The notes under the pieces: generated by a model
Told to the model about the DNA's origin: nothing
What the model saw: only the letters and a program-made list of their open reading frames with translations
The model's database searches: none
Source: Gammaproteobacteria bacterium
Lineage (GTDB): Bacteria; Pseudomonadota; Gammaproteobacteria; Eutrophobiales; Eutrophobiaceae
DNA length: 64,000 nt
NCBI GenBank assembly: GCA_040905045.1
Contig: JBBDSH010000091.1
Location: 1,995-65,994, forward strand
Direction: 5' to 3'
In this document: positions 18,035-64,000 of the stretch, one piece after another
Position numbering within the stretch: the stretch's first letter is position 1
Layout of the letters: the number at the start of each line of letters is the position of its first letter
Made by a program: the position numbers and the translations under genes

Positions 18035-18047
18035 CAGTCGAGTTCCA

Positions 18048-19602: not shown

Positions 19603-19765
19603 TCAACCCATCCCGGATAAAACCAACCGGACAAATCCTGGTCTCACCCGGGGAGGCCGGACACCGGCGTCCCGCCGTTACAATGGGTTTAATCAGTAAT
19701 TCGTATAATCCATGTCCTGAACGTATTCGACGGACAGCAGAATAATCAAAAACCAGTTCTTCAAG

Positions 19766-23991: not shown

Positions 23992-24025
23992 GTCAGTGAT
24001 CTTCCATGGCGTGCCGTCGTTATCG

Positions 24026-32726: not shown

Positions 32727-33010
32727 GAAATAAACTGCCTTGTGAATAATCTTGATTGCGGTGGGAGTCTAACCGGCGCATAAACCGTGTCAAGCCGGAC
32801 CCGGATGCTGCAATCTTACACCGGTTTTATGCCGGGATCGTCCGGAAATTCACCACCTGAACAGCGGACCCGCACCACCGGCGGGCACCTGAGCAGACAT
32901 GGTTACAGCGGAATCCGCCCGCATACATCGGCGGGACCGCCATACGCCGCCGCGACCCGGACGCGGTGCGGGAGGAAAAAAAAACCATTGCATGCCATAC
33001 TATCGCGGTT

Positions 33011-33529: not shown

Positions 33530-33535
33530 TTCGTC

Positions 33536-47924: not shown

Positions 47925-50900
47925 TCAAACTTTTTCATCATTACCCCATTCCCGCCAGCCCTGCAACAGGGGAAAATATAATCCCAGCTTTACGGGACGA
48001 TTGTCCATGTTCCGGACAACAGCCGCGTATCGTTCCAGTTGCTCGCGGTAGCGTTCCCGTTCGCGATCCAGAAAGGCATCGACGTTGCCGCCCTTATGCC
48101 GGGAAGTCTTGTAGTCGACAATCCAGCGTACGCCTTCCTCGTCAATAAAGGTTCTGTCGAGCACCACGTTGATCAGCTTGCCCGCGTACACACCGCTGAC
48201 GGCGTATTCATTCCGCGCATCCCCATGACGGTGATCCAGCAGCCAGTGAGCACGCCGGTCGCGGATCAGATTAACCAGAGCATCCTCCACGGTGGCCAGG
48301 GCCTCGTTCATGTCTTCTCCCGCATCCGGTATACCCAGCCGTTTCAATGACAGGCGGTAATAATCCCGCCCGGATCGGATCCTGTCCTCATTCCATTGCT
48401 CAATACCCTCATCCGCGATCCGTTGAATGCAGCGGTGAACCACGGTGCCGATATGCTTGATGGCCTCGCCGGCCCATTCATATTCAATATCCACCGTATC
48501 CTCATGCACGACTTCATCCACGTCCCGGGGATGCCAGTCAACAGCGTCCGGTGCCTGCGGCAATGACCAGCCGGCGATCAGACGCCGCAGCGTGCGCGGC
48601 TGTGGACCGGATCCTTGCGGCCGTCCCGGCAGAGCCGGCGCGCCGTTCCGTAACACGGCATCACGGCATTGCGCCTCAGCCACCGGCCATAACTGCGCCA
48701 GCAGGCTGTCCGCCCGCGGCGGAACCGGTGAGAGTTCACCGTCACGTTCCCGGCTTTTCACCGAGGCGATCAGGTGCAGCTTCTTTTTCGCCCGGGTCGC
48801 GGCGACGTAAAGCAGGCGGCCGTCTTCAAAGGACTGTTTTTCACGATCCAGCCTGCGCAGGAACTGATAGACGGGTGACTCGTCGGCACCCGCTTCCTTG
48901 ACCGGCGCCAGCAGCAGATCCTGATGATCGCGATGCGGGCTTTCCGACCACAACAGCAGCCGGGTATCGTCATTGCGGCTGCCGCGGGACAGGCCGGGCA
49001 GGATGACCGTGTCGAATTCCAGACCCTTGGCCTTGTGAATGGTCATGATCTGCAAATGGTCGTCGGCATGGATATCCGCCGCGGCGTACAGGCTGCTCAC
49101 CTGCTCCATGAAACCGTCCCGGTCCTTGAGATCCCCGCCGTCGTCGAATTGCTCCAGCAGATCGAAAAAGCTGCGCGCATTTTCCAGATCGGTCTCGCTG
49201 TTCAGCGTGGCCGGCCCGCCGATCCGCAGCCATACCGATTCCACCCAGCGGCTTAACGAAAGACGCTGCCTGTCCCGCAGGGCCGCCTGCAGTACCGGCC
49301 GCAAGCGCAGCAAACGACCGCGCCCCGCTTCGGACAGGGCCTGTACGCATGCCTCGTCCAGGATGCATTCCCACACAGTACGCTCACGTGAGCCGCCGGC
49401 GAGCGCCAGCAAATCCGCCAGGTCGAGTCCGCACCAGGGCGCGCGCAGAACGGCCAGCCAGGCTATGCCATCGGCAAAATGGTGCAATGCCCGTGTCAGT
49501 GCCATCAGATCCTGGATGGCGGGCTGTTCGCCCAGGGGATCGATATCCACGGCCCGGTAACGCAGGCCGGCCTGCTTGAGCCGCGGGACGATATCCAGTA
49601 AATGTGTGCGACCGCGCACCAGGATGGCAACGCGCCCTTCCGGGTCCGCCTCGCGGGCTGCCAGCACCTGCTGTAAAACGATATCCGCCTCGCTCTGACT
49701 GTCATCCACAAGCGTGTGCAATCGCACCGCGTCACCGTCCAGATGATTGTGATACGCCTCGGCCGGGGTATAGTGCACCGCGCCGCGGCCGGGATCCGCG
49801 GTCTGCGGCAATACCTGTGTAAAAACCTCGTTCACCCATTGCACCAGTCCCGACTGGGAACGGAAATTGACCCGGATATGCAGCGGCGTCACCGGTACCT
49901 GTCCCAAACGCCGTTCCTCCCAGGCATTGAGAAACAGCCCCACCTCCGCTTCGCGGAACCGGTAGATGGACTGCATGGGATCGCCCACCAGAAACAGGCT
50001 GTGGCCGTCTTCCATGGACCAGCCGGCGGTGAGTCGTTGCAGTAATGTAAACTGGTTAATGGAGATATCCTGGAATTCATCCACCAGGATATGACGGATC
50101 CGGTAATCCAGGTTCAGTGCCAGATCCGTAGGTGCCTCCTCGTCCCCCAGTGCCTGAATGGCCGCCTGGGTGATGCCGCTGAAATCGATGCGGTTCTGCT
50201 CCGAGCACAACAGCCACAGCCGAGCATCGGCCAGTTTCAGCAATTCACACAAAGCCTGCACCACCTGCCATTCCTCGTCGGTATAGGCGACCGGCGGCAG
50301 ATGCCGGATCGCCAGCAACTGCCGGCTCAGGGAGTCGTCTTCCGACAGCCGGGCGATCAGGGCCTTGAAGCGATCCTTCATGGCCGTGCGCTGTTCCGCC
50401 TCGCCGGTTTTCCCGGCGGCGGGGAATCCGTCGCGGGCGGTGGGCGACTGCCGCCAGTTGCCGTCGCTCTTCAACAATAATGCCACCAGCCCCTGCCATT
50501 GCGGCAGGGATCCGGCCGCCGCCGAAGGGAGTTCCGTCAATCCGGCACAGGCGCGGGCGGGGGACTCCCTCTCCTCTCTCTCCAGGTTGGCCGCGGCGAA
50601 ATCCAGCAGTTCGGCGACTTCCCGGCCGTCCCCGTCCGGGAAATCGCGCCGGGCCGCGCTCAAGGTTTCCTCCGCCACATGCCGCAACGCCCCTTCCAGC
50701 TCCTCGCGGCGTATTTCGCCGGCCACATGCCGCAGCCATTGATCGCGGCGGGCCAGCATACCCGCGAGCATATTACGGATACGCGGCAGATCGTTATCCA
50801 GGTGCGCCAGCAGCACGGCAATGGCATCGGACCAGCCCTGGCCGCTTTCCAGTTCCGCCAGGGTGTCCGCGGCGGCCTGTTCATAGAGTTCCGTGGCATC

Positions 50901-51341
50901 CTCGACGATCTCGGGCTGGGCGCCAAAACGGGACAACACTGGCATCTGCCGGGTCAATGCCCCGCACAGGGAATCGATGGTCTGAATGCGCAGCCGCCCG
51001 GGATTGTCTTCCAGTTGCCAACCCTGCTCCCGGTTTCGTGTCATGGCCGCGTTGGCCAGAACGTCGGTCTTGCGTGCCGCTTCATCGTCGGGCGTGTTGC
51101 CGTCAACGACGCGTTCCAGGGCGTCGATAATACGCCCGCGCATTTCCGCCGCCGCCTTGCGGGTAAAGGTAATGGCAACGATCTCCTCCGGAGCCTCGAC
51201 CACCGACAACAGGCGCAGATAGCGCTGGATCAACAATTCCGTTTTTCCGGAACCGGCCGGCGCCTGGACGATGAATGATTCATCCGGCTCGATGGCGCGC
51301 AGGCGCTGATCCAGATCGGCGACGTGTTGTTCAGTCGTCAT
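47925..51341 (-). CDS. addA: UvrD/Rep-type helicase with a C-terminal PD-(D/E)XK nuclease domain (AddA-like)
   Basis: From ATG 51341 (MTTEQHVADLDQRL...). It has Walker A APAGSGKTE, helicase motifs (VDEFQD, TIHKAKGLEFD, YVAATRAKK) and a C-terminal nuclease motif (IVDYKT). It overlaps the addB stop by 11 nt. Confidence 0.85.
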   Translation of the reverse strand: MTTEQHVADLDQRLRAIEPDESFIVQAPAGSGKTELLIQRYLRLLSVVEAPEEIVAITFTRKAAAEMRGRIIDALERVVDGNTPDDEAARKTDVLANAAMTRNREQGWQLEDNPGRLRIQTIDSLCGALTRQMPVLSRFGAQPEIVEDATELYEQAAADTLAELESGQGWSDAIAVLLAHLDNDLPRIRNMLAGMLARRDQWLRHVAGEIRREELEGALRHVAEETLSAARRDFPDGDGREVAELLDFAAANLEREERESPARACAGLTELPSAAAGSLPQWQGLVALLLKSDGNWRQSPTARDGFPAAGKTGEAEQRTAMKDRFKALIARLSEDDSLSRQLLAIRHLPPVAYTDEEWQVVQALCELLKLADARLWLLCSEQNRIDFSGITQAAIQALGDEEAPTDLALNLDYRIRHILVDEFQDISINQFTLLQRLTAGWSMEDGHSLFLVGDPMQSIYRFREAEVGLFLNAWEERRLGQVPVTPLHIRVNFRSQSGLVQWVNEVFTQVLPQTADPGRGAVHYTPAEAYHNHLDGDAVRLHTLVDDSQSEADIVLQQVLAAREADPEGRVAILVRGRTHLLDIVPRLKQAGLRYRAVDIDPLGEQPAIQDLMALTRALHHFADGIAWLAVLRAPWCGLDLADLLALAGGSRERTVWECILDEACVQALSEAGRGRLLRLRPVLQAALRDRQRLSLSRWVESVWLRIGGPATLNSETDLENARSFFDLLEQFDDGGDLKDRDGFMEQVSSLYAAADIHADDHLQIMTIHKAKGLEFDTVILPGLSRGSRNDDTRLLLWSESPHRDHQDLLLAPVKEAGADESPVYQFLRRLDREKQSFEDGRLLYVAATRAKKKLHLIASVKSRERDGELSPVPPRADSLLAQLWPVAEAQCRDAVLRNGAPALPGRPQGSGPQPRTLRRLIAGWSLPQAPDAVDWHPRDVDEVVHEDTVDIEYEWAGEAIKHIGTVVHRCIQRIADEGIEQWNEDRIRSGRDYYRLSLKRLGIPDAGEDMNEALATVEDALVNLIRDRRAHWLLDHRHGDARNEYAVSGVYAGKLINVVLDRTFIDEEGVRWIVDYKTSRHKGGNVDAFLDRERERYREQLERYAAVVRNMDNRPVKLGLYFPLLQGWREWGNDEKV

Positions 51342-54015
51342 CGTCAGCGTCCCGTGGCGGCAGTTCATGAATACGGCACAAGGGGTGTTGATCGCAATAC
51401 CGGCAGGCGCGGGCGTCTTTGGGATCAACGCGGGCGTCACCGTCAAGGAAACCCCGCGCCAGTCCGGCCACAACACCACGCCAACTGGCCAGTAAATCAC
51501 TCCATTCCGGAACGGGATGAGCGTCACTGATCAGGTATTTCGCCTGATTCGAGGCGGAGAAGGCTTTCGTTGCAGGCAGGATACCGTCCTCGCTGGCCAG
51601 ACCCTGATAACCGAACCCCCGGCCGCGTTTCAGACGGCCGAAGGCAACGGCCGCCACTTCCGCATCCCGGGTCACGGCATACAGCGGCAGTTGCGGATCA
51701 TCGGGCCGTTCGCCCAGCCATTCGTTCACCCCGGCCTCGCCGGTTTTGTAATCAATAATGACTTCACGGCCGTCCGCCAGTCGATCGATGCGATCAATAC
51801 GCGTGTTCACTTCGACGCCTTCAACGCGGATACGTTGCGCTTCCTCGCCGGCAACAACGATAAACGGCGCGCGCTGCCTTTCCTGTTGCAGCCATTGCCG
51901 CAGCGTATGTATCAAACGCGCTTTCTCCAGGCCGGTGAAGCGTTCCGTCCACAGGCGCGGGTGCCGTTTTTTCAGCAACTGGATGACCTCGTCGGTCACC
52001 GACGCCAGCAAGCGCTCCAGTTCCCCGGGGTCCATAGCGCACAACTGTTCCTGTGAGTGCAGCCGTTGCCAGAGAAGATGCAGGGCACGATGAAGGAGCA
52101 GGCCCCGATCCCGCGGGCTGAGGCCGATATCTACCTCTTCCGGCGCGCCGGCGTGCAGGCGGTGGCGGGCAAAGGCCCGGAACGGACAGACGGACTGATC
52201 CCGGAACAGGGCCGTGCCGCCGATGGCACCGCCGGCGGCCGGGGGCGGCGCCCGTTCATCGCTGAAGGTTTCCAGCTTGCCGGCGGCCAGTATTCGCGCC
52301 GCGTAATGCGGTACTGTCACCGACAGCGGTTCCGCGCTGCTTTCCATATAGGGTTTCAATAACGGGCTCGGGCGCAGGGTGCGCTCCTTTTCATTTTCCG
52401 GGTAACTGAGCACAACCTGTTGCGCGGAGCACGCCAGCCGCGACAGGGTTTGCCGCGCCTCTTCCAGCGTCACTTCCGCCGTCGCGCCGGGCATGGCGCT
52501 GCGCCGCTGCAGGGAAAACGGGATGTACGGATTGGGCCGGGCCGGTGGCGGCCAGGTCTCTTCCTGCAGCCCCGCAACCCAGAGGTGATCGAAGCCCATG
52601 TCCGCGGCCCCGGCCGGGCCCAGTATCTGGACGGGCACCTCGCCCGTTTCCGGCTGAAAATGCTGTGCCGTCGCGATGCGGCGCAGATAGCCGAGGGCGC
52701 TGCTGTAGGTCAGCCGGCCGTCCAGCAGTTGCAGGGAAACGAACCGATCCAGAACCTCACGCCAGGCCTTGAGGACCTGGTATTCACCGCTGTCGGGCAC
52801 ACGATCGCCGGGCCAGCCGTACAGGGTCAGCAAATGTGAAATGTATCCGGCCCAATCGCCGGGCCTGGCCTGATGCGGCAGTGTCTGCAGATGGTCACGG
52901 GCATTCTGCAATTGTTTCATCAGCAGGCCGGGGCGGCGGGGTTCCTCCAGCCGCCGGCCGGCGATATGAAGCAATGTGGCGATATCCGCCCGGGTTTCCC
53001 CATGATCCCGCAGGCAGACGTCCAGCCGCGCCCGATCCAGTTCCTCTTCCCCGGCGCCGTACAGCCACGGACTCCTGAGTATTGCCCCCCACTGCTCTAC
53101 AGATAATGGTTCCCGGCCCAGTGCCAGCAGGCTGAAGGCCGTGTTAACAAGGGGATAATCCGGTAACGGTTTGCCCAGGGACAGACTGAAGGCTTGCGCA
53201 TCCTCCGGGACCGCGTCGGCGATGGCGCCCGGATTGAAGCAGTCTTGAAACCGGCGGAGGATATGGCTGCGCCGGTTCTGCAGATCCGGGATGACGATAC
53301 CGATCCCGGCACTCGTGTCCGCTTCCAGTATTTCGCGCGCCCAGCCCGCCGCGGTGTTGATCTCCTCACCAGTATTGGCGCAGGCCGCCACGCGGATACG
53401 AGTGCCGGTCACGACCCGGTCCCGGCCCGCGATGTGGATCGCTCCCCCCTCCGCCTCAATTCGGTCAAACAGGTATTGTTGCCGGGGCGTGATCCGATCA
53501 AATCCGATCAGTGCAAGCCGGTTCGTACCCCTGATGTATTCCGCGAGCAGGTCAAGCAGGGAACCGCTGTCGCACCAGTGATTATCGGAACAGGTCCTTT
53601 TGAAACTGTCGGCCCAGTTCCTGAAAGCCCGGGCATCTTCATTGAGTCCCGTCTCCGCCGGAAAAACCGGCAGGCGATACTGATGCATGAGGTCCCAGGC
53701 TTCCATAACCCGCTTGACCATATCGGGGGCCTGCATCAGCGCGTTCGCCCGGGATGATTCATTAATAATCCGTTGCCACAATACCTGCTCCTGCGAGTCG
53801 TTCAGCAACAGCAGCCCGGCTTGCTCCTGTACATGGTTGTCCCAGCAGCGCTGCAGCCAGGCCTGCCAATGCAGTATATCCGGAGACGACCAGGCCGTTT
53901 TGCCCTGCCGGATTTGCCAATGGGCATAATCGTATTGCAAACGCCGGGCCAGACGGCGGTTGGCGGCAACCAGTGTGTATTCCGCATCCAGCAATTCCAG
54001 GTGTTTCTTATTCAT
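51331..54015 (-). CDS. addB: AddB-like PD-(D/E)XK nuclease / inactivated helicase subunit
   Basis: 894 aa. It has a C-terminal nuclease motif (IIDYKTG) and a terminal Cys cluster (ACRYCDQHPLC) typical of the AddB iron-sulfur staple. Confidence 0.75.
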   Translation of the reverse strand: MNKKHLELLDAEYTLVAANRRLARRLQYDYAHWQIRQGKTAWSSPDILHWQAWLQRCWDNHVQEQAGLLLLNDSQEQVLWQRIINESSRANALMQAPDMVKRVMEAWDLMHQYRLPVFPAETGLNEDARAFRNWADSFKRTCSDNHWCDSGSLLDLLAEYIRGTNRLALIGFDRITPRQQYLFDRIEAEGGAIHIAGRDRVVTGTRIRVAACANTGEEINTAAGWAREILEADTSAGIGIVIPDLQNRRSHILRRFQDCFNPGAIADAVPEDAQAFSLSLGKPLPDYPLVNTAFSLLALGREPLSVEQWGAILRSPWLYGAGEEELDRARLDVCLRDHGETRADIATLLHIAGRRLEEPRRPGLLMKQLQNARDHLQTLPHQARPGDWAGYISHLLTLYGWPGDRVPDSGEYQVLKAWREVLDRFVSLQLLDGRLTYSSALGYLRRIATAQHFQPETGEVPVQILGPAGAADMGFDHLWVAGLQEETWPPPARPNPYIPFSLQRRSAMPGATAEVTLEEARQTLSRLACSAQQVVLSYPENEKERTLRPSPLLKPYMESSAEPLSVTVPHYAARILAAGKLETFSDERAPPPAAGGAIGGTALFRDQSVCPFRAFARHRLHAGAPEEVDIGLSPRDRGLLLHRALHLLWQRLHSQEQLCAMDPGELERLLASVTDEVIQLLKKRHPRLWTERFTGLEKARLIHTLRQWLQQERQRAPFIVVAGEEAQRIRVEGVEVNTRIDRIDRLADGREVIIDYKTGEAGVNEWLGERPDDPQLPLYAVTRDAEVAAVAFGRLKRGRGFGYQGLASEDGILPATKAFSASNQAKYLISDAHPVPEWSDLLASWRGVVAGLARGFLDGDARVDPKDARACRYCDQHPLCRIHELPPRDADDDD

Positions 54016-54141: not shown

Positions 54142-55143
54142 ATGACGCGAAACGCTGTCTCCCCTGCACGGGCCATCAGAAGTCCGTGTTATCAGGTTCC
54201 GCCGGCAAGGCAAGTGCCCGGCCTGTTCGAGGATGTTCGTAATGGACTGTTGTCCCGGCCGCGCAGCCTGCCGCCGAAGTATTTTTATGATGATAGGGGT
54301 TCGGAATTGTTCGAGCGGATCTGCAGTACTCAAGAGTACTATCCAACCCGTACCGAAGACGCCCTGTTGGCCGAGCACAGTAAACATATCATAGCCGCCA
54401 CACGGCCGGATGAAATCATCGAACTCGGCAGCGGCAGTTCAAGAAAGACACGCCGGCTTTTTGATGCCTGTGAGGCGCTCGACCACGCCTGTAATTACAG
54501 TCCCTTCGACGTCTGCGAGCCCGCGCTGGAACAGGCCACCGATGAGCTAAGCAAAACCTATCCCTGGCTGGAAATCACCCCCCTGGCCGGGGATTACCAC
54601 GCGGGCCTGGGCAACTTTCCCGCCGGCACCGGCACCAGTCTCTATATTTTCCTCGGCAGCACTCTGGGCAATTTCACGCGCGAACAGGCAAAAGACTTTA
54701 TTCGGGAAGTCCATGACTGCATGAAGCCGGGCGATTATTTCCTGCTCGGCGCGGATCGACTGAAAGATCCGAGGGTACTGAAAGCCGCCTACAACGACAG
54801 TCAAGGCATTACCGCACAATTCAACCTCAATGTTCTGAGGGTGCTCAATCGGGAACTGAATGCCGATTTTGAACCGGCCAGTTTTGAACACAAGGCCGTC
54901 TTCAACGAGCGGGAATCCCGTATTGAAATGCATCTGCAATCCGGCCATGAACAGACCGTGCATTTACACAGTCTGGGAAAGACCATTCATCTTCAAAAGA
55001 ATGAATGCATATTGACCGAATACAGCCACAAATTCCGCTATCAGGAATTGCAGGATTTGTTAACGGATAACGGTCTGGAAATCATGCGTCATGACCAGCC
55101 ACGGAATGAATACTTCTCCCTGATCCTTTCGCGCCGACCCTGA
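54142..55143 (+). CDS. egtD: EgtD-family histidine N-alpha-methyltransferase-like protein
   Basis: 333 aa. LPPKYFYDDRGSELFERI, EYYPTRTE, ELGSGSSRKT and FLGSTLGNF are the EgtD/DUF2260 signature blocks. Confidence 0.75.
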   Translation: MTRNAVSPARAIRSPCYQVPPARQVPGLFEDVRNGLLSRPRSLPPKYFYDDRGSELFERICSTQEYYPTRTEDALLAEHSKHIIAATRPDEIIELGSGSSRKTRRLFDACEALDHACNYSPFDVCEPALEQATDELSKTYPWLEITPLAGDYHAGLGNFPAGTGTSLYIFLGSTLGNFTREQAKDFIREVHDCMKPGDYFLLGADRLKDPRVLKAAYNDSQGITAQFNLNVLRVLNRELNADFEPASFEHKAVFNERESRIEMHLQSGHEQTVHLHSLGKTIHLQKNECILTEYSHKFRYQELQDLLTDNGLEIMRHDQPRNEYFSLILSRRP

Positions 55144-55378: not shown

Positions 55379-56062
55379 TTAATCATTACGTGGTAATTCC
55401 TCCGCCAGAGACGGGGTATCGATAAAACGATTACGCCGGCCCTGTAGTTCTTCAATACGGTTGTTGCGGTATTGTTCCTGTTTACTGGGAGGGTCGGTCC
55501 GGTTCCATTGCCTGAGGGTTTCCAGCATGCCCGGTTTTATCGGCAAATCGTAGGTGTCATGCATGTAAAAAATCGCCCTGGCGATATTTCCGCGGGCGAT
55601 CGCGCGCGGCTCGACAACCCTTGAATCCCACTCAAAATCACAATCACTGAAACGCCAGTCTTCTCCTTCGATTTCACCAAACGGCAAATCATTGCGGAGT
55701 ATAACCAGTTCACTCCACACCGGATACATATTATGCAGGTCGGACTCCATTTCCATAAAACCCTGATTGCTGCCGTCATAACATGCCAGGCGGTTGGCAC
55801 ACTCCACGTTTTCCAGCATCCAGCTAACGGAATAGATATGGTCGACATCAATGTATTTCCCGTTCTTCGTTTTACGGTCCCTGCCAAACTGATAACCGCA
55901 ATAGAGTGTCCAGCCGCCCTGTGAATAAAGATCACCCCGGAAATAGTTATTCACGACATGATCGTAGTTCCGGATGGATGATTCTCCATACACACCACGC
56001 CCCTGGAACAGGACAAGGACAAGAAGGAATGTGAGTGAAAAGCCGTTTTTGTAATTTATCAT
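55379..56062 (-). CDS. endA: secreted endonuclease I (EndA/Vvn family)
   Basis: 227 aa. It has a signal peptide plus LYCGYQF, DVDHIYSVSW, SDLHNMYP and RGNIARAIFYM. Confidence 0.85.
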   Translation of the reverse strand: MINYKNGFSLTFLLVLVLFQGRGVYGESSIRNYDHVVNNYFRGDLYSQGGWTLYCGYQFGRDRKTKNGKYIDVDHIYSVSWMLENVECANRLACYDGSNQGFMEMESDLHNMYPVWSELVILRNDLPFGEIEGEDWRFSDCDFEWDSRVVEPRAIARGNIARAIFYMHDTYDLPIKPGMLETLRQWNRTDPPSKQEQYRNNRIEELQGRRNRFIDTPSLAEELPRND

Positions 56063-56170
56063 TGTCTGATTGACTCACATTATTCATTGATAATTGATTT
56101 TTTTGTTCGCACCCATGCTTCCCGGAAGAAGTCTGGAACTTGCAGGCGTATGCCATTGTAAGGCTGCCGG

Positions 56171-57142
56171 TCAGCGGAGCACGCCGCGCCTTAGCAACTG
56201 CCAGAGTATACTGGATCCGAAGAGAATCGGATGTCGCCGCAGGCGCGGTGTGATTTCGATGGTAACGCCTGTATGCCGCTTTATCTTCCAGGCCGCGTAT
56301 TCGATACAATGGTTGAACGTGAATACAGCCTTGACCAGCCTGGCCACGGATAAAATACGACCCTGCTGCCGGCGCAACCACCATTTCCTTCCGCATCGGC
56401 GTTGCTCACGTTTATCAACCATGCAACGGAAATCGCCTTCCGGCTCAGCCTGTAATCGACCCTCCATGGCGGGGACGGCCGCGCCGGTAAGTCGACTGTA
56501 ATCGCCAAGGTTCAAATGCGTCAGTTTTCTTTCCCTGCCCCGCTTTTCAGGCCGCAGTTCCGCCGCATAGGTCAAGGCAAGCCCGCGGGTCCAGATTTCC
56601 TCCGCATTAACATTGCGGCTACCCAGCATCGGAATGGTCGTTTGCAGAAATGTTATCACTGCTTCAGCCAGAGACCGGTTCACCCGGTGCAGGGTTACCT
56701 CGTCGCGCGTATAAAGAGTCCGCACCGGCTGGGCAAAACGCGCCCAGATATAGGAGTGAAACCAGTCCCGGCATCCCCGCTCAAAATCATGCCGGGAGAG
56801 AACCGCGTATTTGCATCGCAGCACGGCTTCTTCGCCGCCGACTTCCATGTAGAAAACGTTCGGAGGCAGCCAGGCGTTCAATATCCGCAAGTGCCGTTTC
56901 CCGTAGGCATTACGGTAGTCGTCCACGATGGCATACAAGTCCACCACGCCTTCGGAAGGATTGTGCGTATGCAGGCAGGAACCGTAGAGAATCACCGCAT
57001 CCAGCGCCTCACCAAAACGCGATTGCAGTTCCCGCGCAAGCAGGGTGAATTCCGGCGCCACAACACGGGAACTCTGCGATGCCACTTCCGCAAGCAGTTG
57101 CAACGGCAAGTCCGGAGTGGATTGTTTTGATGACTTCTGCAT
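56171..57142 (-). CDS. Tam41/Mmp37-like nucleotidyltransferase-fold protein (tentative)
   Basis: 323 aa. AVILYGSC, VVDLYAIVDD, KYAVLSRHDF..W..YIWARFAQPV and ALTYAAELRPEKRG follow the order I associate with Tam41-type CDP-DAG synthases. The C-terminus is strongly basic. Confidence 0.4.
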   Translation of the reverse strand: MQKSSKQSTPDLPLQLLAEVASQSSRVVAPEFTLLARELQSRFGEALDAVILYGSCLHTHNPSEGVVDLYAIVDDYRNAYGKRHLRILNAWLPPNVFYMEVGGEEAVLRCKYAVLSRHDFERGCRDWFHSYIWARFAQPVRTLYTRDEVTLHRVNRSLAEAVITFLQTTIPMLGSRNVNAEEIWTRGLALTYAAELRPEKRGRERKLTHLNLGDYSRLTGAAVPAMEGRLQAEPEGDFRCMVDKREQRRCGRKWWLRRQQGRILSVARLVKAVFTFNHCIEYAAWKIKRHTGVTIEITPRLRRHPILFGSSILWQLLRRGVLR

Positions 57143-57162
57143 GGGTGGAGTGTAGCGTTCCG

Positions 57163-58146
57163 TCAGGGAACAAAAAAGGTGGCCGGCCCTGCGGATGAAA
57201 TTCTCAAAGGCCCTTCGGCGCTCTCCGCTGCGTGCAGTTCACCGTCAATAATAAACTCATCATCCATAAACAGTTCCAGGGCAGTCGTATTGAAACTTTC
57301 ATAACCGTCGATCGCGGCCAGATGCTCGCCCCGCCCGCGCAGTAGAGACGGCAGGGAACGCCAGAAACGCTGCGGTGATTCCCGCACCAGGGTTGCGTGG
57401 ATCGGCGCCCGCTCCCTGCCCCAATACGGCCGCGTACCCAGCAACAGGCGATCCAGAGCGCTGGCCAGAAGGATTATATAGGCCCCCTCCCGTTCGTCCC
57501 CGTCTCCCCCGGTTACTGAAAGGCGCGCGGGTAATAATGCATCCCCGGACCGGCCGACCAGTAAACCACCGAGCAGCCAGAGCAGCACAAGTCCGCCGGC
57601 AATCTCGCTGGTCATGCCGAGACGGCTGATCTTTTCATGGAAATAACGCACGCCGCTTGCTATGGCGCCGGCACCGAAAAACATGCCGTAAAGGTCCGCA
57701 CGACCCGGCCGTTCTATACGCAGCACCGGGCGCTGCACGAGACAGGATGATAGCGGCCTGTCTAACCTACCCTGCAGACGTTTCAGAACCCGTGTCAGCC
57801 CGCCGCGCACGCCCAAATCCAGGGCCGTCATATTGGTGGTGCCGGCGGGAATAATACACAACGGCGGCCAGCCGGTTGATCCATGCGACTCGAACAGGCA
57901 GGTTAATACCGCCTGGACCGTGCCGTCGCCACCGGCAACGGCCAGGACTTCCGGTTGTTCCGCAAGCAGAATATCAAGGGCCGCACCGATTTCCACGGGA
58001 GTGGAAGCCTCCTGATACAGCGCATCAACACTCCCGGAAAAAATGCCTGCCGCAGGTCTTTTCATTTTACGGACACGGCCGCTTAGAGGGTTGCAAAGCA
58101 GGCCAACCTTCATCCGCTCACCGGTCGCAGGGAGATCATTACTCAT
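57163..58146 (-). CDS. lipid kinase of the diacylglycerol kinase catalytic (LCB5/YegS/DgkB) family
   Basis: From ATG 58146 (MSNDLPATGERMKVGLLCNPLSG...). AVAGGDGTV and IIPAGTTN are present. The longer track ORF (to 58551) overlaps lptG and is rejected. Confidence 0.75.
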   Translation of the reverse strand: MSNDLPATGERMKVGLLCNPLSGRVRKMKRPAAGIFSGSVDALYQEASTPVEIGAALDILLAEQPEVLAVAGGDGTVQAVLTCLFESHGSTGWPPLCIIPAGTTNMTALDLGVRGGLTRVLKRLQGRLDRPLSSCLVQRPVLRIERPGRADLYGMFFGAGAIASGVRYFHEKISRLGMTSEIAGGLVLLWLLGGLLVGRSGDALLPARLSVTGGDGDEREGAYIILLASALDRLLLGTRPYWGRERAPIHATLVRESPQRFWRSLPSLLRGRGEHLAAIDGYESFNTTALELFMDDEFIIDGELHAAESAEGPLRISSAGPATFFVP

Positions 58147-58157
58147 TCTATGATGAA

Positions 58158-59222
58158 TCAGGCGACCCGGCGCAGAAGGATTACGGCCAGTAAAATCAGG
58201 AGAGCGCCGGGCATAAGAGCGATCACCGCCGTATTCATATTCAGCAGCAAACCGGTGTTGGCTATGATTTGATCGAGGAGGTAGACGGCGATACCGCTCA
58301 ATCCCGCGAGCACCACGCGGGCACCCAGTCCCGTACGCACCGAGCCGAAAACGAAAGGCACCGACAACAGCATCATGGCGATAGTGGTCAGCGCGGCCCC
58401 CAGCTTGCGCCACATTGCCAGGGAGTAGGCTTCCGCCTCCTGCCCGGTATTGCGCAGAAAACGGACATGCCGGAACAGTTCCGTCGGCGACAGGCTCTCG
58501 GGCGGCTTGGTCAATGTCTCGATCTGTCCCGCATCCAGAAACGGTTCCCATGACATCGACACCCTTTGCTCTGATTCAACCGATTGCCCGTCGATCTGCT
58601 TGATGGTCACTCCGCGCAGCATCCATCGATCGCGGTTGACAATATCGGCCCGTTCCGCGTGGATATAATTTTCCATCAGTCCGAAACTGTCGAAACGAAG
58701 GATCTCGATGTCCAGCGCACGGTTTGTATGCGGCATTCTGCCCACGCGCAGAATGTTCGACTCATCACGGCTCCATATGCCCAGATCGCGGCCCAGTTCG
58801 GTACTCTGTTCCAGGGCTGCGGATCGTTTCAAAATGGCCTGTTGCTGCAAGGGAGGTGCAACAAACTGTTCAAGCAGGACCATAATCACCACAAGTATCA
58901 GACCGACTCTGAGCGATTCCAGACCGACCCGTGCCGGCGAGAGACCGGCGGCCCGCAGGGAAATAAGTTCATGATGCATGGCCAGCCTGCCCAACGCTAT
59001 GACGTTACCCAACAATGCAATGAAGGGAGCAAGCTGGATCAACCGGCGCGGCAGAAGAAGCGCGACGTAGGCAAAAGCATCTCCGATCTCGTAGGTGCCT
59101 TCCCCGACATTTTCAAGCTGTTCCAGCAAATCCATAAATGCGAACAGCGGCAAGAGTGCAATGGCGGCAAGCACCAGGCCACCGAGAATCTGCCGGGTCA
59201 GATATCGGCTGATGGTTTTCAT
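58158..59222 (-). CDS. lptG: LPS export ABC transporter permease LptG
   Basis: From ATG 59222 (MKTISRYLTRQILGG...), which forms an ATGA overlap with the lptF stop. It has the YjgP/YjgQ permease layout. Confidence 0.85.
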   Translation of the reverse strand: MKTISRYLTRQILGGLVLAAIALLPLFAFMDLLEQLENVGEGTYEIGDAFAYVALLLPRRLIQLAPFIALLGNVIALGRLAMHHELISLRAAGLSPARVGLESLRVGLILVVIMVLLEQFVAPPLQQQAILKRSAALEQSTELGRDLGIWSRDESNILRVGRMPHTNRALDIEILRFDSFGLMENYIHAERADIVNRDRWMLRGVTIKQIDGQSVESEQRVSMSWEPFLDAGQIETLTKPPESLSPTELFRHVRFLRNTGQEAEAYSLAMWRKLGAALTTIAMMLLSVPFVFGSVRTGLGARVVLAGLSGIAVYLLDQIIANTGLLLNMNTAVIALMPGALLILLAVILLRRVA

Positions 59223-60289
59223 GAGCGGCGCCGGCGGGTTCCCCGGAATCCGGACAACACGACAATGACAATCACCAGCATTAATCCATGCAGCCACCAT
59301 ATTCCCGGTATGGCGGGCACCGTACCCTGTTCCACCCAGGTTCGTGCCAGGCCGCTGAGATTGTAATAAATCGCGAATACCAGAGCCGCGGTAAACGACT
59401 TTTCACCGCGCCCCTGCCGCGGCGACGCCCGGCTCAACGGAATCGCAATCAGAGCGAGTAGCACAGCCGCCACGGGCCTGGACAGGCGCCATTGCAGTTC
59501 CGCTATGTCGTAAGGCTGATTCGAAGCCAGTAATGTCAGCGTTGACGCGGCCTTTCGCCTGTAACCCAGCTCCTTGGTGGTATCCGTCTGATAAACCAGT
59601 TTGCTGAACCGGATCGTGGAATCCTCCGCCCCACCACGATCAAACTTGTAAATAACGCCGTCAAACAAATGCAGCTGCGGGACGCGATTGGGATCGATAT
59701 CCCTTCGATAGGCCTCTCTTGCCGTTACAATCTCGCTGTGACGTTCATCCCGCGTGTAATGAAAAACGTTTTGCATAAGGCCGCTCTGACTGTCCTTGCG
59801 TTGCAGATAGACAATCCTGCCGCTGTCTTCGTTGCCGTAAAAACGTCCCGCCTGGAATCGATCCGTATTCAGTTCCGCTTCAGCGCGTGCATCCATAATA
59901 TAGCTGCGCTCGTAAGCCCACGGTCTGCCGAACATGGATATGGTCCCGCTGAGTAATGCAACAGGGATGGACAGTACGAGCACGGCCTTGATGATATGCG
60001 ACGTGCTCATGCCGACCGAACGAATAGCGATGATCTCCTGGTCGCGATGCAGTCGACCCAGGCCGACAATGACGCCCACATAGAGCGAAATGGGAATCAA
60101 AACTTCAAGGGCGATCAGGGTTTTCAGAAAAATCAGTTCGATCATGGCGGCCACGCCCAGGGTTTCCGTTACCGCCTCGGCGAGAAAACGGGCGCTGCTG
60201 AAGCTGGCGAAGAGCCCCGTCAGGATCAGACTTACGACAAGGAACGGCCTGAGTATTTCACTGATGATGTATAACTCGATTCTCTTCAA
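59219..60289 (-). CDS. lptF: LPS export ABC transporter permease LptF
   Basis: 356 aa (MKRIELYIISEILRPFLVV...). It has a TTG start overlapping the upstream stop (TTGA) and the YjgP/YjgQ family layout. Confidence 0.85.
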   Translation of the reverse strand: MKRIELYIISEILRPFLVVSLILTGLFASFSSARFLAEAVTETLGVAAMIELIFLKTLIALEVLIPISLYVGVIVGLGRLHRDQEIIAIRSVGMSTSHIIKAVLVLSIPVALLSGTISMFGRPWAYERSYIMDARAEAELNTDRFQAGRFYGNEDSGRIVYLQRKDSQSGLMQNVFHYTRDERHSEIVTAREAYRRDIDPNRVPQLHLFDGVIYKFDRGGAEDSTIRFSKLVYQTDTTKELGYRRKAASTLTLLASNQPYDIAELQWRLSRPVAAVLLALIAIPLSRASPRQGRGEKSFTAALVFAIYYNLSGLARTWVEQGTVPAIPGIWWLHGLMLVIVIVVLSGFRGTRRRRS

Positions 60290-61416
60290 AGATGCTTCTC
60301 GTAGATTCGATAGCGCTTATAGACTGTACTTCCGACAGTATCCAGAATACCGCGCATGGGTTTGTTGTCCTCCAGAATCCAGGACATCTCCACTTCCCTG
60401 ATACCATGATTGATCACCGGCAGTAGCGTCTGGTCGATCACCATGAAGGCCAGCGCGATGCCCATAGGCGTATTCTGGTAGCGTTTGCGTACTCCCATCA
60501 ACGGTACTCTCCCCGTCCGTATCCGGCGATTCCGCAGTTGCCTGATCAGATGCAACCAGCCTTTCGGCAGCAACTTTCCGTCAATTTCACCGACCACTTC
60601 ATTGAGATTGGGCAGGACGACCGTGAAGGCTGCCGGCTCGCCGTCAACCTCCGCCACCTGGATAAAATCACGGGGAACAAACAACCTCAGGCCGGTACCG
60701 ATATCGGCAAACTCCTCCCGCGTAAAAGGCACAAAACCCCAGTTTTCCGACCAGGCATCATTGAATATATCCCGCAATGTTTCCATTTCTTCAGCAAACC
60801 TTTTACGGTCCAGAGGCCGCAGACGGACACGCGTGGAGTAACGTTCAACCAGTCTTTTCATTACTGCAGGTGTCTCGAAATCCGTGTGTATCCAGTAGGC
60901 AAGCAGGTCCCGCGCAGGCGCATATCCCTGCCTTTCAATCAGCCGGCCGTAACATTCCCTTGAATGCGGCATCATAATCACCGGCGGTGTATCGAATCCA
61001 TCAACGAGTATGCCGCAGTCATGGTTAATGGAAAAATTGAACGGCCCGGTTATCAGTTTTGTACCGTGATCACGCAGCCAGTCTTCCGCAGTCTGAAATA
61101 ATAGTTCGGCTACGGCGGGATCGTCTTCACATTCAAAAAAACCGAAATGACCGGTTGCCGCATGATATTGCCGGCGATGCAGGTGATCGATCTGGGCGCT
61201 GATCCTGCCGGCCGGTTTTCCATTCCGGAATACCAGCCAGGCCTGCCATTCCGCATGCCTGAAATAGGGATTGAAACGGGAAAGATGAATGCGCCGTTCA
61301 AGATACAGGGGCGGGACCCATGCGGGATCATCCCGATAAAGATACCCGGGGAGTTCGATGAAGGACGCAATGTCACTCCGGCTTTCGACCGGCTGCACAG
61401 TGATCGTATCTGACAT
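60286..61416 (-). CDS. large (about 376 aa) GNAT-like N-acyltransferase family protein
   Basis: From ATG 61416 (MSDTITVQPVESRSDIASFIELP...). It has a two-lobed acyl-CoA N-acyltransferase-like layout and is translationally coupled to lptF. Confidence 0.5.
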   Translation of the reverse strand: MSDTITVQPVESRSDIASFIELPGYLYRDDPAWVPPLYLERRIHLSRFNPYFRHAEWQAWLVFRNGKPAGRISAQIDHLHRRQYHAATGHFGFFECEDDPAVAELLFQTAEDWLRDHGTKLITGPFNFSINHDCGILVDGFDTPPVIMMPHSRECYGRLIERQGYAPARDLLAYWIHTDFETPAVMKRLVERYSTRVRLRPLDRKRFAEEMETLRDIFNDAWSENWGFVPFTREEFADIGTGLRLFVPRDFIQVAEVDGEPAAFTVVLPNLNEVVGEIDGKLLPKGWLHLIRQLRNRRIRTGRVPLMGVRKRYQNTPMGIALAFMVIDQTLLPVINHGIREVEMSWILEDNKPMRGILDTVGSTVYKRYRIYEKHL

Positions 61417-61743
61417 TAGTAAACCATATGAATCGGCACGCCGGCATCCGGAACCCGACTGTGGGAGAAAGCGGGTACGGCATGACCATGATAGCACAGG
61501 GCTGCCGGACTCCGGCTATGCTGCCTGTTCCCTGAACGGGGCGGCACAGAGACCCAGGCCGGATTCCGGGCCTGAAAGCAGAACCCGGGCCGGCAAGCAT
61601 GCATTACCTCACAAATCGGCTCCCCGGGGCTTGCATCGGAGCCAGAGAACTGACTTGATGGAAAATATATACCGATTATGAAAGGAAACTGGCGATGAAG
61701 GTCATAAATGCGATAAACTGCGCCAACTTCCAAGATGGTCCCC

Positions 61744-61782
61744 ATGATGAATTTTTGCTGGCAACAGCGGGAAATTCATCAT
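61744..61782. promoter_or_regulatory. 11-bp perfect inverted repeat upstream of (or in the 5' end of) the FAAL gene
   Basis: ATGATGAATTT (61744-61754), a 17-nt spacer, then AAATTCATCAT (61772-61782). It ends 43 nt before ATG 61825. Confidence 0.4.
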
Positions 61783-61824
61783 AAACTAGCACATTGCTCA
61801 AGAATCCTTTATATTATCAACAAG

Positions 61825-63690
61825 ATGACAGATTCTCTTAACCAGGGGGGCGAAGCTCTGAGTTCAGCGATCAAGATGCCCGGAACCACGGGCCATCCGG
61901 TACGGAAACATGTACCTTCCGCAGACTCACCGGCTCCGGCCCCGGTGAAACCGACGCCGACCCGTAGCGGTCAGGTACAGCGTCTCGCTGATTTTGCCAC
62001 GCTTACCGATGCCCTCGATTACGCAGCCACGGGCGATACCGGCTACAATTTTTATGACGGCAGGGGCAATCTGCGCTCGGTATTACCCTACCGGGAACTC
62101 AGAGAACGCGCCCGTGACGCCGCGCGTCGGATGATTTCCGCGGATATAGAACGCGGCGAACACGTTGCCATCATCGCCGATACCACACCGGAATTCGTTA
62201 TTCTGTTCTTCGCCTGCCGTTACGCCGGGCTGGTGCCGTTTGCCATGCCGGTGCCCATCAATCTCGGCAGTCACGATATCTACGTACAGCAATTGCGCGG
62301 CATGCTGGAAAGCAGCGAGGCCGCCGCTGCCTTTGCCAATGTGGAATACATCAGCTTTCTGCAAGAGGCCGCCGGCGATAATAATGAATTAAAATGGCTC
62401 GGAACTCCCGAGCAACTGGACAGGCTGCCCCTTTCCGATATTGAATTCCGGGACAATCACCCCTCGGAAACCGCCTACCTGCAGTTCACATCCGGCAGTA
62501 CCCGCAATCCCCAGGCGGTTGTTATCACGGAACAATCCGTCATGAGCAATCTCCAGGGCATAACCCGTTACGGCCTTGAGATGCATCCTGAAGATCGTTG
62601 CGCATCCTGGTTGCCGTTTTACCACGACATGGGACTGGTCGGCCTGATCATGTCGCCCATGGTCGCCCAGCTTTCCGTGGACTTCCTGTCCACCCGTGAC
62701 TTCGCCATGCGGCCTTTACAATGGCTGCGGTTGATCAGCCGCAATCGCTGTACCATCGCATTCAGCCAGCCGTTCGGGCTTAAGCTCTGCACCCTCAGGG
62801 CCCGCAGTGCGGACCTGGAAGATCTGGATCTGAGTTGCTGGCGTGCCGCCGGTATCGGTGCCGAGATGATCCGCCCGGATATTCTCCGGAATTTCGCTGA
62901 TAAATTCGCCCCCACCGGTTTCCGCCTGGAAGCGTTTCTGCCCTGTTACGGGCTGGCCGAAGCGACACTTGCGGTCACCTTTGCCGACATCAGCAAGGGT
63001 TTTGAAAGCCTTTGCGTGGATTCGGGAGCGCTGGTGGAGCGGAATATTGCCGTTCGGGTACAGGCGGACGGACGCGCGCACAATGAATTCGTCAATTGCG
63101 GTCACCCGCTTCCCGGGCTGGAAATCCGTATTGTCGATGAGGATAACGGACCCCTGCCGGATCTTCGCATCGGACGAGTATTGATGCGCGGTCCCAGTGT
63201 CATGAGCGGTTATCACAACAGCCCCGGGGAAACCGCCAGGGCCTTAAAAGACGGCAACTGGCTGGATACCGGAGACCTGGGTTTTCTGTTTGAGGGCAGC
63301 CTTTATATCACCGGCCGGCGAACGGACGTGATCATCGTGAACGGACGGAATATCCGTGCCCAGGATATCGAAACCCTCGCCGAGCAACAGGAAGAGATCA
63401 GGACCAGAGAGGTATCCGCGTTCGGTATCGTAGATGAAAATGACGATACGATTGTGGTTCTGGTCATCGAACACCGTTCATCCTCCCCTGAACAACGTCA
63501 AAACCTGACGACACGCCTGCAACGACTGGTGTATGCCTCTTTCGGCGTCCGCTGTCAGGTGGAACTGGTACCTCCCCATACCCTGCCCCGGACCTCGTCC
63601 GGAAAACTGTCACGCACCGCCGCCCGCAAGGGCTTTCTGGAACGCAACTGCCTGACAGAGACACAAGCGGCCCAATCCGACAGCGGGTAG
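61825..63690 (+). CDS. fatty acyl-AMP ligase / acyl-ACP synthetase-type adenylating enzyme
   Basis: It has a FAAL-like N-terminal block (LADFATLTDALDYAA...YNFYD), the AMP-binding motif QFTSGSTRNPQAVV, TGDLGF and the C-terminal SSGKLSR. The start is uncertain: 61735, 61825 or 61876. Confidence 0.8.
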   Translation: MTDSLNQGGEALSSAIKMPGTTGHPVRKHVPSADSPAPAPVKPTPTRSGQVQRLADFATLTDALDYAATGDTGYNFYDGRGNLRSVLPYRELRERARDAARRMISADIERGEHVAIIADTTPEFVILFFACRYAGLVPFAMPVPINLGSHDIYVQQLRGMLESSEAAAAFANVEYISFLQEAAGDNNELKWLGTPEQLDRLPLSDIEFRDNHPSETAYLQFTSGSTRNPQAVVITEQSVMSNLQGITRYGLEMHPEDRCASWLPFYHDMGLVGLIMSPMVAQLSVDFLSTRDFAMRPLQWLRLISRNRCTIAFSQPFGLKLCTLRARSADLEDLDLSCWRAAGIGAEMIRPDILRNFADKFAPTGFRLEAFLPCYGLAEATLAVTFADISKGFESLCVDSGALVERNIAVRVQADGRAHNEFVNCGHPLPGLEIRIVDEDNGPLPDLRIGRVLMRGPSVMSGYHNSPGETARALKDGNWLDTGDLGFLFEGSLYITGRRTDVIIVNGRNIRAQDIETLAEQQEEIRTREVSAFGIVDENDDTIVVLVIEHRSSSPEQRQNLTTRLQRLVYASFGVRCQVELVPPHTLPRTSSGKLSRTAARKGFLERNCLTETQAAQSDSG

Positions 63691-63700
63691 CCGGGCCATT

Positions 63701-64000
63701 ATGGCCGGACCGGTGGTACTGACGGGGGCGACGGGCTTCATCGGCACCGCCATTCTGGAAAGCCTCATTACAAGCGGACGGCCTGTCCGCGCCCTGACCC
63801 GGCGGCAGCGGCCCGATACCGATACCGTTCAATGGATCCACGGCGATCTGCATGACCGGGAAGCCCTGCAAGAGCTGGTCGCCGGCGCCGACGCCATAAT
63901 CCATTGTGCCGGAGCCGTCCGCGGCGCATCACTGAACGATTTTTCCCGGGTCAATACCGAGGGGACACTCAATCTGGTGGAGACAGCGGTGCGAAACGCC
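63701..64000 (+). CDS. NAD(P)-binding extended-SDR (epimerase/dehydratase/NDUFA9-like reductase); its 3' end runs off the window and it is not in the supplied ORF track
   Basis: Own translation from ATG 63701 gives MAGPVVLTGATGFIGTAILESLITSGRPVRALTRR...GDLHDREALQELVAGADAIIHCAGAV... It has the TGxxGxxG Rossmann motif and is open to the window end. It lies 10 nt after the FAAL stop. Confidence 0.65.
   Translation, partial: MAGPVVLTGATGFIGTAILESLITSGRPVRALTRRQRPDTDTVQWIHGDLHDREALQELVAGADAIIHCAGAVRGASLNDFSRVNTEGTLNLVETAVRNA

Follow-up and report, generated by a model that had tools for sequence, protein, structure and literature searches.

We analyzed a window of 64,000 nucleotides from contig JBBDSH010000091.1 of the assembly GCA_040905045.1, from an uncultured gammaproteobacterium, and describe here the genes at its end, from position 56171 to 64000. 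Five of these are chained on the minus strand. The first in the order of transcription is cerS (60286..61416), which codes for a bCerS-like N-acyltransferase of 376 amino acids, a distant member of the GNAT family with a marginal match to Acetyltransf_1 (E = 7e-4). It is followed by the genes for two permeases, lptF2 (59219..60289; 356 amino acids; TIGR04407, 338 bits, cutoff 230) and lptG2 (58158..59222; 354 amino acids; TIGR04408, 310 bits, cutoff 240), and then by a cpgB-like gene for a lipid kinase of the DAGK/LCB5 family, a candidate ceramide kinase (57163..58146; 327 amino acids; PF00781 DAGK_cat, E = 2.9e-13). The last gene of the chain is cpgC-like and encodes a nucleotidyltransferase with a predicted Tam41 fold (56171..57142; 323 amino acids), for which the match to PF09139 Tam41_Mmp37 is under the Pfam cutoff (E = 1.3e-3). 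Divergently, on the plus strand, an aasR-like gene for an acyl-acyl carrier protein synthetase of the fatty acyl-AMP ligase (FAAL) type (61735..63690; NF006624, 837 bits, cutoff 600) starts at 61735 or 61825; the intergenic region to cerS (61417..61734) accordingly measures 318 nt, or 408 nt with the start at 61825. Next to it lies a cerR-like gene for a reductase with a short-chain dehydrogenase/reductase (SDR)/epimerase fold (63701..64000; PF01370, E = 3e-17), of which the first 100 of 302 codons are covered before it runs off the end of the window. This region is probably one half of a divergent locus for the synthesis of sphingolipids and their export to the outer membrane.

All seven open reading frames are intact, and an independent gene call on a contig with 99.99% identity gave the same starts. 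An earlier, sequence-only reading of this DNA had already placed the five chained genes and the divergent pair at these positions, and it had the overlaps right: the cerS stop codon and the TTG start of lptF share the sequence TTGA (60289-60286), and the lptF stop codon and the lptG start share ATGA (59222-59219). Its spacings of 20 nt upstream of the ATG of the Tam41-like gene and of 10 nt between the FAAL stop codon and the ATG of the SDR gene were also recovered, but the gap between the lptG stop codon and the kinase ATG (58146) is 11 nt rather than 12 nt. The overlapping stop and start codons suggest translational coupling of genes for separate proteins, so the description of lptF and lptG as "translationally fused" was a misnomer. 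In a scan for consensus promoters and terminators, the number of sites equaled that in shuffled sequence, and the cerS/aasR intergenic region was left with no assigned promoter. No Rfam family and no tRNA was detected in the window.

The locus continues on a 16-kb assembly contig, L001, which was found via the exact LptF product; exact look-ups of the FAAL, with either start codon, gave no match. It differs from the window at one of 8564 bases (window positions 55437-64000) and extends 6.3 kb further, with the effect that the two together cover about 70 kb of the genome. An acyl carrier protein and an alpha-oxoamine synthase had been named as the genes to look for past the end of the window, and the SDR gene is indeed directly followed on L001 by genes for an acyl carrier protein and a serine palmitoyltransferase; beyond them come an ATP-binding cassette (ABC) exporter with the domains ABC_membrane and ABC_tran, and a divergent MarR gene. 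On the minus strand of L001, we identified the full-length cerR (5681-6589; 302 amino acids; SDR/epimerase), acpR (5399-5653; 84 amino acids; PF00550 PP-binding), which overlaps the start of spt, spt itself (4218-5402; 394 amino acids; NF047599) and the ABC exporter gene (2399-4120; 573 amino acids), which lies about 2.2-3.9 kb past the window end. The aminotransferase passes the serine palmitoyltransferase equivalog NF047599 with 602.8 bits (cutoff 500). Its best solved relative is the serine palmitoyltransferase of S. wittichii (2x8u, E = 1.9e-123), as compared to E = 2e-69 for Kbl, and the lysine that binds pyridoxal phosphate is kept (Lys244 in the motif TFSKS). The identities of BioF and Kbl were tried and rejected, with scores of 338.5 (cutoff 426) and 316.7 (cutoff 460), respectively. 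AcpR, encoded immediately upstream of spt, has kept the phosphopantetheine serine (Ser40 in the motif DSM) and scores under the equivalog cutoffs for housekeeping acyl carrier proteins. Spt and AcpR are both 53% identical to their counterparts in the spt locus of E. coli, in the case of AcpR over 53 residues. Judged by its sequence, the full locus is aasR-cerR-acpR-spt-ABC, divergent from cerS-lptF-lptG-cpgB-cpgC, which reads as a ceramide and ceramide-phosphate cluster with its own export genes.

We compared the locus to 80 loci with a CerS homologue, taken from the 120 best matches listed in a genome scan that was seeded with an alignment of 16 CerS sequences. These loci come from Nitrosomonadaceae, Pseudomonas, Azorhizophilus, Salinisphaera, Citrobacter, Escherichia, Nitrospirales, Desulfobulbaceae, Geobacter and Alphaproteobacteria. 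No locus from the Caulobacterales is among the 80 listed, and with a bCerS just 41-47% identical to that of every other group, Caulobacter would not be expected in the top 120. Across the 80 loci, cerS is repeatedly linked to spt, acpR, cerR, aasR, lptF-lptG, the kinase gene and the Tam41-like gene, and spt lies within 10 kb of the cerS homologue in 43 of them. A set of 48 loci represents other species with full flanks of 10 kb. In this set, spt was found in 33 loci, the lptF-lptG pair in 32, the kinase and/or the Tam41-like gene in 27, a gene with the domain NTP_transf_3 in 36, and a CpgA-like CDP-alcohol transferase and the ABC exporter in 19 loci each. Whether lptFG sits in this context in related genomes had been posed as a check, and the pair stands near a cerS homologue in two thirds of the full-flank loci. 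Given this recurrence of lptFG, spt and the kinase or Tam41-like gene, the linkage of cerS, lptFG, spt and the kinase gene is not due to chance.

The AasR-like FAAL is 46% identical to the FAAL of the E. coli spt locus, whose counterpart in BL21 is the characterized AasR, and 44-61% identical to those in related loci, where its gene always adjoins cerR-acpR-spt; the order aasR-cerR-acpR-spt is present here and in at least 25 related loci. The CerR-like SDR, whose gene lies between aasR and acpR, shows 37-54% identity in related loci and 43% to the SDR of the E. coli locus, and the Nitrosomonas protein Neut_0459 is 38% identical to CC_1164, the CerR of Caulobacter (E = 4e-52; PMC11324152). The alternative of a sugar epimerase in a glycosyltransferase context was ruled out by model scores. 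CerS belongs to a very large family, with more than 8000 hits and, at 50% identity, 7424 clusters. The window protein shares 56-62% identity with the Nitrosomonas and Nitrosospira proteins encoded at the position of Neut_1100, which is listed as an orthologue of CC_1154/bCerS with 41% identity (E = 5e-105; PMC11324152), and 47% with YghO, a member of the E. coli spt locus. The genome scan found no GTDB species representative with a CerS that is more than 62% identical. Sequence searches of the PDB returned no informative relative of CerS, the kinase or the Tam41-like protein. Some proteins of the CerS family are far longer than 380 amino acids (P0122, 784 amino acids; P0141, 630 amino acids; P0219, 940 amino acids); one of these long proteins contains two CerS-like stretches, and others have additional N- or C-terminal regions.

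The kinase contains the motif GGDGT at residues 72-76, and the eukaryotic motif CxxxCxxC is absent. Its counterparts at this position in Nitrosomonas loci share 40-44% identity with it, and the one of N. eutropha, Neut_1105, is listed as an orthologue of CC_1160/CpgB (PMC11324152). A kinase of the YegS type was considered and rejected: the best YegS score was 26.8 bits against a cutoff of 118.65, and the YegS models as a group gave 18-27 bits against cutoffs of 118-387, in line with the earlier assignment to the LCB5/DAGK family. With a DAGK catalytic domain, GGDGT, no CxxxCxxC, no YegS identity, and spt, cerS and cerR in the same locus, its features fit the published description of CpgB (PMC10331486), which makes it a candidate ceramide kinase. 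The call of a Tam41-like protein was borne out by a fold search. Its AlphaFold2 model (mean predicted local distance difference test score, pLDDT, 85.9) matched Tam41 CDP-diacylglycerol synthases best in Foldseek, with 7ecd (E = 1.2e-8; template modeling (TM) scores 0.52/0.59) ahead of 6ig2 and 6ig4; the next fold class had a TM score of about 0.26 and other nucleotidyltransferases scored far lower. Many homologues carry a precomputed match to PF09139, and orthologues with 34-56% identity are encoded after the kinase gene in 38 of the 80 related loci. The CpgC protein of Caulobacter, CC_1161, likewise carries the Tam41 InterPro domain, a CDP-diacylglycerol-synthase domain (PMC11324152). With spt and acpR found and the kinase and Tam41-like calls upheld, the gene families match those of the Caulobacter-type pathway for ceramide and ceramide phosphate, as the sequence-only reading had proposed from motifs.

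The two permeases, which are flanked by cerS and the cpgB-like gene, belong to the family PF03739 LptF_LptG. LptF is 21% identical to the canonical LptF of E. coli and 27% to that of P. aeruginosa, as compared to 37-38% to the spt-linked LptF of Escherichia, Pseudomonas and Azorhizophilus, which in turn show 25-30% identity to the canonical LptF of E. coli or P. aeruginosa. LptG is 28% identical to the LptG of E. coli, 34-35% to the spt-linked proteins of E. coli/Escherichia, and 55-59% to those of the Nitrosomonadaceae. Taken as a pair, the permeases show 34-39% identity to the spt-linked paralogues of E. coli, Citrobacter and Pseudomonas. In neighbor-joining trees, the only kind of tree made (with Poisson distances for LptF), both proteins fall in a clade with spt-linked pairs that is recovered in 100 of 100 bootstraps; this clade excludes the canonical LptF of E. 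coli, P. aeruginosa and V. cholerae in the LptF tree and the canonical LptG of E. coli in the LptG tree. It spans genomes of Beta- and Gammaproteobacteria, Nitrospirota and Desulfobacterota. The permeases are thus most likely a dedicated paralogue pair of the sphingolipid locus and not the extractor of lipopolysaccharide (LPS). Both have kept the glutamate of the coupling helix, with Glu85 of LptF corresponding to E84 in E. coli LptF and Glu85 of LptG to E88 in E. coli LptG, and no ABC ATPase is encoded in the window. These two observations fit the published finding that LptF2/G2 borrow LptB, which here would be encoded elsewhere.

The gene order provides a link to the proteins that have been studied in Caulobacter. 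In the N. oligotropha locus L004, the order is cerS, NTP_transf_3, lptF, lptG, CDP-alcohol transferase, kinase and Tam41-like gene. This is the order of Neut_1100-1106, which are listed as orthologues of CC_1154, 1153, 1156, 1155, 1159, 1160 and 1161 (Table S2D in PMC11324152), so that the window genes, at 40-62% identity to those of Nitrosomonas, are tied to the Caulobacter proteins via the published orthology table. In the window and L001, we found no homologue of CpgA, of the CC_1153-like NTP_transf_3 protein, of the metallophosphoesterase, or of the Wzx-like, LpxO-like and CofD proteins, all of which are encoded in related loci. Since the NTP_transf_3 and CpgA-like genes are missing, cerS overlaps lptF and lptG is close to the kinase gene. 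In Caulobacter, CC_1160 and CC_1161 are both required for ceramide phosphoglycerate, the first step, and the second phosphoglycerate has been linked to CC_1159, CC_1153 and CC_1152 (PMC11324152). Counterparts of CC_1160 and CC_1161 are kept here and those of CC_1159 and CC_1153 are absent from the approximately 70 kb; for CC_1152, no homologue search was made. The product is therefore predicted to be a mono-substituted ceramide phosphate derivative, unless other genes elsewhere in the genome contribute.

The reading of the locus builds directly on gene content, family membership, conserved synteny and the phylogenetic placement of the permeases. The enzymatic and transport steps that we infer from these, by homology with the systems of Caulobacter and E. 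coli, are as follows. AasR would charge AcpR with a fatty acid, and Spt would condense the acyl-AcpR with serine to 3-oxosphinganine, from which N-acylation by CerS and reduction by CerR would yield dihydroceramide. The DAGK-family kinase would convert this to ceramide-1-phosphate, and the Tam41-fold enzyme may turn ceramide-1-phosphate into ceramide phosphoglycerate or an NDP-activated ceramide. A flippase, for which the ABC exporter is the candidate, would then move the anionic lipid across the inner membrane, and LptF2-LptG2, with the borrowed LptB, would extract it and feed the Lpt bridge that leads to the outer membrane.

The literature that we searched names no ABC exporter of this kind and states that a sphingolipid flippase is yet to be identified. 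The exporter is 28% identical to MsbA of E. coli. An identity as MsbA was tried and rejected, with 244.7 bits for TIGR02203 (cutoff 602) and 201 bits for NF008381 (cutoff 867). Orthologues were identified in 20 of the 80 loci, 17 with 43-56% identity and three with 35-36%. In five loci the gene is no more than about 120 bp away from spt, in five others it abuts cerS, and in ten it is 0.9-3.4 kb from spt or cerS; three of the five that abut cerS are those with 35-36% identity, in alphaproteobacterial loci. None of the 28 loci with either the ABC gene or a Wzx-like gene has both, as compared to about two expected by chance, which is suggestive at most. The locus with the closest layout, L008 on a 3.5-Mb chromosome of a gammaproteobacterial metagenome-assembled genome, contains a Wzx-like gene (PF01943, the family of CC_1166) after spt, in the place of the ABC gene. 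The MsbA-like ABC exporter linked to spt is thus a candidate for the missing inner-membrane sphingolipid flippase in the many lineages from which the Wzx-like CC_1166 is absent, which we regard as a modest lead. As a separate observation on L008 (13419-17230), the kinase gene is missing there, a calcineurin-like phosphoesterase gene lies between lptG and the Tam41-like gene, and genes for an LpxO-like Asp/Arg hydroxylase and a CofD-family transferase come next, a hint that the head-group chemistry differs.

Several points weigh against the interpretation given here. The role of the exporter as a candidate flippase is deduced from gene position alone. Orthology to bCerS, CerR, CpgB, CpgC and LptF2/G2 is a chain, from the window to the Nitrosomonas and E. 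coli loci by our computation and from there to Caulobacter by published BLAST tables, and at the last step Neut_1102/1103 are just 24-33% identical to CC_1156/1155 (PMC11324152). The permease trees contain no canonical LptF from Beta- or Alphaproteobacteria. The LptF proteins of alphaproteobacterial loci (L055, L062, L070, L074 and L075) form a separate deep clade, apart from both the canonical gammaproteobacterial LptF and the spt-linked clade from outside the Alphaproteobacteria. The spt-linked pairs of Beta- and Gammaproteobacteria and Nitrospirota may hence be an independent recruitment rather than orthologues of Caulobacter LptF2/G2, and sphingolipid loci may have acquired LptFG duplicates on more than one occasion. 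The literature has not settled what chemistry CpgC performs, and CerR has been reported to be periplasmic in Caulobacter, which complicates the proposed order of steps.

The permeases could also be the only lptF-lptG pair of the genome and its true LPS extractor, co-transcribed with the ceramide-phosphate genes, in which case one extractor would serve both LPS and sphingolipid, or sphingolipid would replace LPS as in Sphingomonas. We consider this unlikely. Both proteins score above the NCBIfam equivalog cutoffs for LptF and LptG, but these matches do not decide the question, since the canonical and the spt-linked pairs of E. coli receive identical names from PGAP. No second pair is encoded in the roughly 70 kb visible in the window and L001; this corresponds to about 2% of a typical genome, and that no second pair was seen therefore carries little weight. 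S. wittichii has been reported to have the locus-linked pair only, and a single lptFG accompanies sphingolipid synthesis in Bacteroidetes and Myxococci (bioRxiv 10.64898/2026.04.12.717747). With canonical betaproteobacterial LptF missing from the tree, the spt-linked clade could moreover stem from a canonical lineage that includes this pair. The identities of 34-39% to spt-linked paralogues, as compared to 21-28% to the canonical gammaproteobacterial proteins, and the full bootstrap support argue against it, as does the gene neighborhood: the canonical order pepA-lptF-lptG seen in E. coli is absent, and the neighbors are cerS and the lipid kinase gene. The earlier suggestion that the LPS extractor itself is hard-wired to ceramide genes is not supported for the same reason, for in E. 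coli, Citrobacter and Pseudomonas the paralogues with which the pair groups occur alongside a canonical pair. Among 5426 complete E. coli genomes, 4128 contain a spt-linked second lptF-lptG, and all 5426 have the canonical pair linked to pepA.

A reading in which ceramide is made, but the kinase and the Tam41-like protein act on a glycerolipid, from diacylglycerol to phosphatidate and CDP-diacylglycerol, and in which the cargo of the LptFG-like pair is not a sphingolipid, is very improbable in our judgment. It draws on the observations that CpgB phosphorylates diacylglycerol about as well as ceramide in vitro (PMC10331486), that Tam41 proteins are CDP-diacylglycerol synthases, and that 8 of the 32 full-flank loci with lptFG, enterobacterial loci among them, have neither the kinase nor the Tam41-like gene. 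Deletion of cpgB in Caulobacter, however, leaves phosphatidate levels unchanged, and spt, bcerS and cerR are likewise encoded in nearly every genus that has cpgB (PMC10331486). Moreover, both genes are needed for the ceramide phosphoglycerate of Caulobacter, as described above, and the kinase and Tam41-like genes travel with cerS and spt across phyla, with lptFG present in 24 of the 27 full-flank loci that contain them. That the genes are accidental neighbors or decaying remnants with no joint function is scarcely credible. The corresponding region is reduced in E. coli of the K-12 type, and 1298 of the 5426 E. coli genomes lack the spt-linked lptFG, but here the open reading frames are all intact, their stop and start codons overlap or are close, the catalytic motifs are kept, and the linkage recurs in dozens of distant taxa. 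A locus for sphingolipid synthesis and export remains the preferred reading.

Elsewhere in the window, a group of hopanoid-associated genes on the plus strand (15196-22393) codes for LPG_synthase_TM, a squalene/phytoene synthase, a PNP_UDP_1 nucleosidase, a PhyH dioxygenase and the RND transporter HpnN (TIGR03480, 940 bits), so that the same 64 kb encode a second outer-membrane lipid transport system. The minus strand contains a gene for the PhaE subunit of a class III polyhydroxyalkanoate synthase (24026-25144) beside a gene for a protein with an alpha/beta-hydrolase fold that could be PhaC (22927-24087; the two together 22927-25144), and an AddAB-type helicase-nuclease pair (47925-54015). 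On the plus strand are a FabA-FabB pair (32966-34777) and a stand-alone gene for the histidine methyltransferase EgtD (54142-55143), which adjoins the sphingolipid locus; no other ergothioneine gene was seen. The Lon protease of the window has at most 72% identity to named proteins, all of them from uncultured Gammaproteobacteria, and 67-68% to the Lon of Sulfurivermis and Sulfuricella, so the source is an uncultured lineage of the Gammaproteobacteria, taken broadly with the Burkholderiales included.

The sequence-only reading took the coupling of such genes to LPS permeases to be undescribed, but the arrangement had already been published (Olea-Ozuna 2024, PMC11324152; bioRxiv 10.64898/2026.04.12.717747). 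In Caulobacter, CC_1152-CC_1168 include aasR, cerR, acpR, spt, cerS, genes for phosphosphingolipids and "second versions" of LptC, LptF and LptG (PMC11324152). LptF2/LptG2 have been drawn beside cerS, cpgB and cpgC for Caulobacter, N. eutropha, A. vinelandii, P. luteola and S. wittichii, and Fig 7 and Table S2 of that study list these locus genes for N. eutropha (Neut_1100-1106, Neut_0458-0461), A. vinelandii and P. luteola (PMC11324152). Uchendu, Isom and Klein report that lptF2, lptG2 and lptC2 can be deleted only if spt or cpgB is inactive, that LptF2 and LptG2 form a complex, and that both bind or co-purify with the single LptB; the pair is essential only while the anionic sphingolipid is being made and is needed for its export, which LptB powers (bioRxiv 10.64898/2026.04.12.717747). 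AasR, AcpR and Spt of Caulobacter and E. coli BL21 have been validated, and the BL21 versions make 3-oxosphinganine (Padilla-Gomez et al. 2022). An inference from motifs alone thus matched a pathway and a transport link that were worked out only recently, and adds little new biology. What the locus offers is a compact set of nine genes with just the predicted functions for ceramide, ceramide phosphate and the first head group, which may be a useful minimal set for heterologous reconstitution. The analysis also indicates that the spt-linked LptFG outside the Alphaproteobacteria are one widely transferred clade that is annotated exactly like the essential LPS extractor, and that the ABC exporter, whose gene accompanies spt or cerS in one of every four loci compared, is a candidate inner-membrane sphingolipid flippase.

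Compared with the Caulobacter locus (CC_1152-CC_1168, equivalent to CCNA_01210-01226), the families are the same, with AasR, CerR, AcpR, Spt, CerS, a DAGK kinase, a Tam41 protein and LptF/LptG beside cerS, and the expected logic is the same too: ceramide would be made anionic and exported by an Lpt-like extractor that uses LptB. The locus described here differs by the absence of homologues of CpgA, CC_1153, the CC_1158 phosphoesterase, the CC_1157 HIT protein, LptC2 and the Wzx-like CC_1166, by the MsbA-like ABC exporter after spt, and by its gene order. The divergent layout is shared with A. vinelandii and P. luteola, where spt-acpR-cerR-aasR faces cerS...lptF2-lptG2...cpgB-cpgC (PMC11324152), and we observed it also in two organisms related to these, Azorhizophilus (L017) and Pseudomonas sp. 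(L028). At the protein level, the window genes are closest to those of the Nitrosomonadaceae (40-62% identity). The loci of A. vinelandii, P. luteola and N. eutropha contain an NTP_transf_3 gene after cerS and a CpgA-like transferase gene between lptG2 and cpgB, both of which are lacking here, and the spt operon of N. eutropha is located elsewhere in the genome, whereas it is adjacent here.

The yghO-spt locus of E. coli (BL21, UTI89 and about three quarters of the complete genomes) contains aasR, the SDR gene, acpR, spt, yghO and an lptF-lptG pair of the same clade. It has neither the kinase nor the Tam41-like gene, its lptFG lies beside spt rather than after cerS, and instead of the ABC exporter it encodes a Wzx-type "lipopolysaccharide biosynthesis protein". 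In E. coli S10 (L083, NZ_CP010229.1 2354216-2374415), the cerS homologue is annotated just as "protein YghO". Canonical LptB2FG (E. coli b4261/b4262; PDB 5x5y, 6mhu, 6mit and 6mjp) shares with the window pair the Pfam family, the length, the coupling-helix glutamate and the pattern of hydrophobic segments, with three before and two or three after a central region; the window pair is set apart by its 21-28% identity, its separate clade, the lack of pepA and its presumed substrate, an anionic sphingolipid instead of lipid A. MsbA has the same half-transporter architecture of ABC_membrane and ABC_tran as the exporter, which for its part belongs to an orthologous group that travels with spt and cerS. 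As a whole, the locus represents a known system, correctly read, that has been published for Caulobacter, relatives of Pseudomonas, Nitrosomonas and E. coli.

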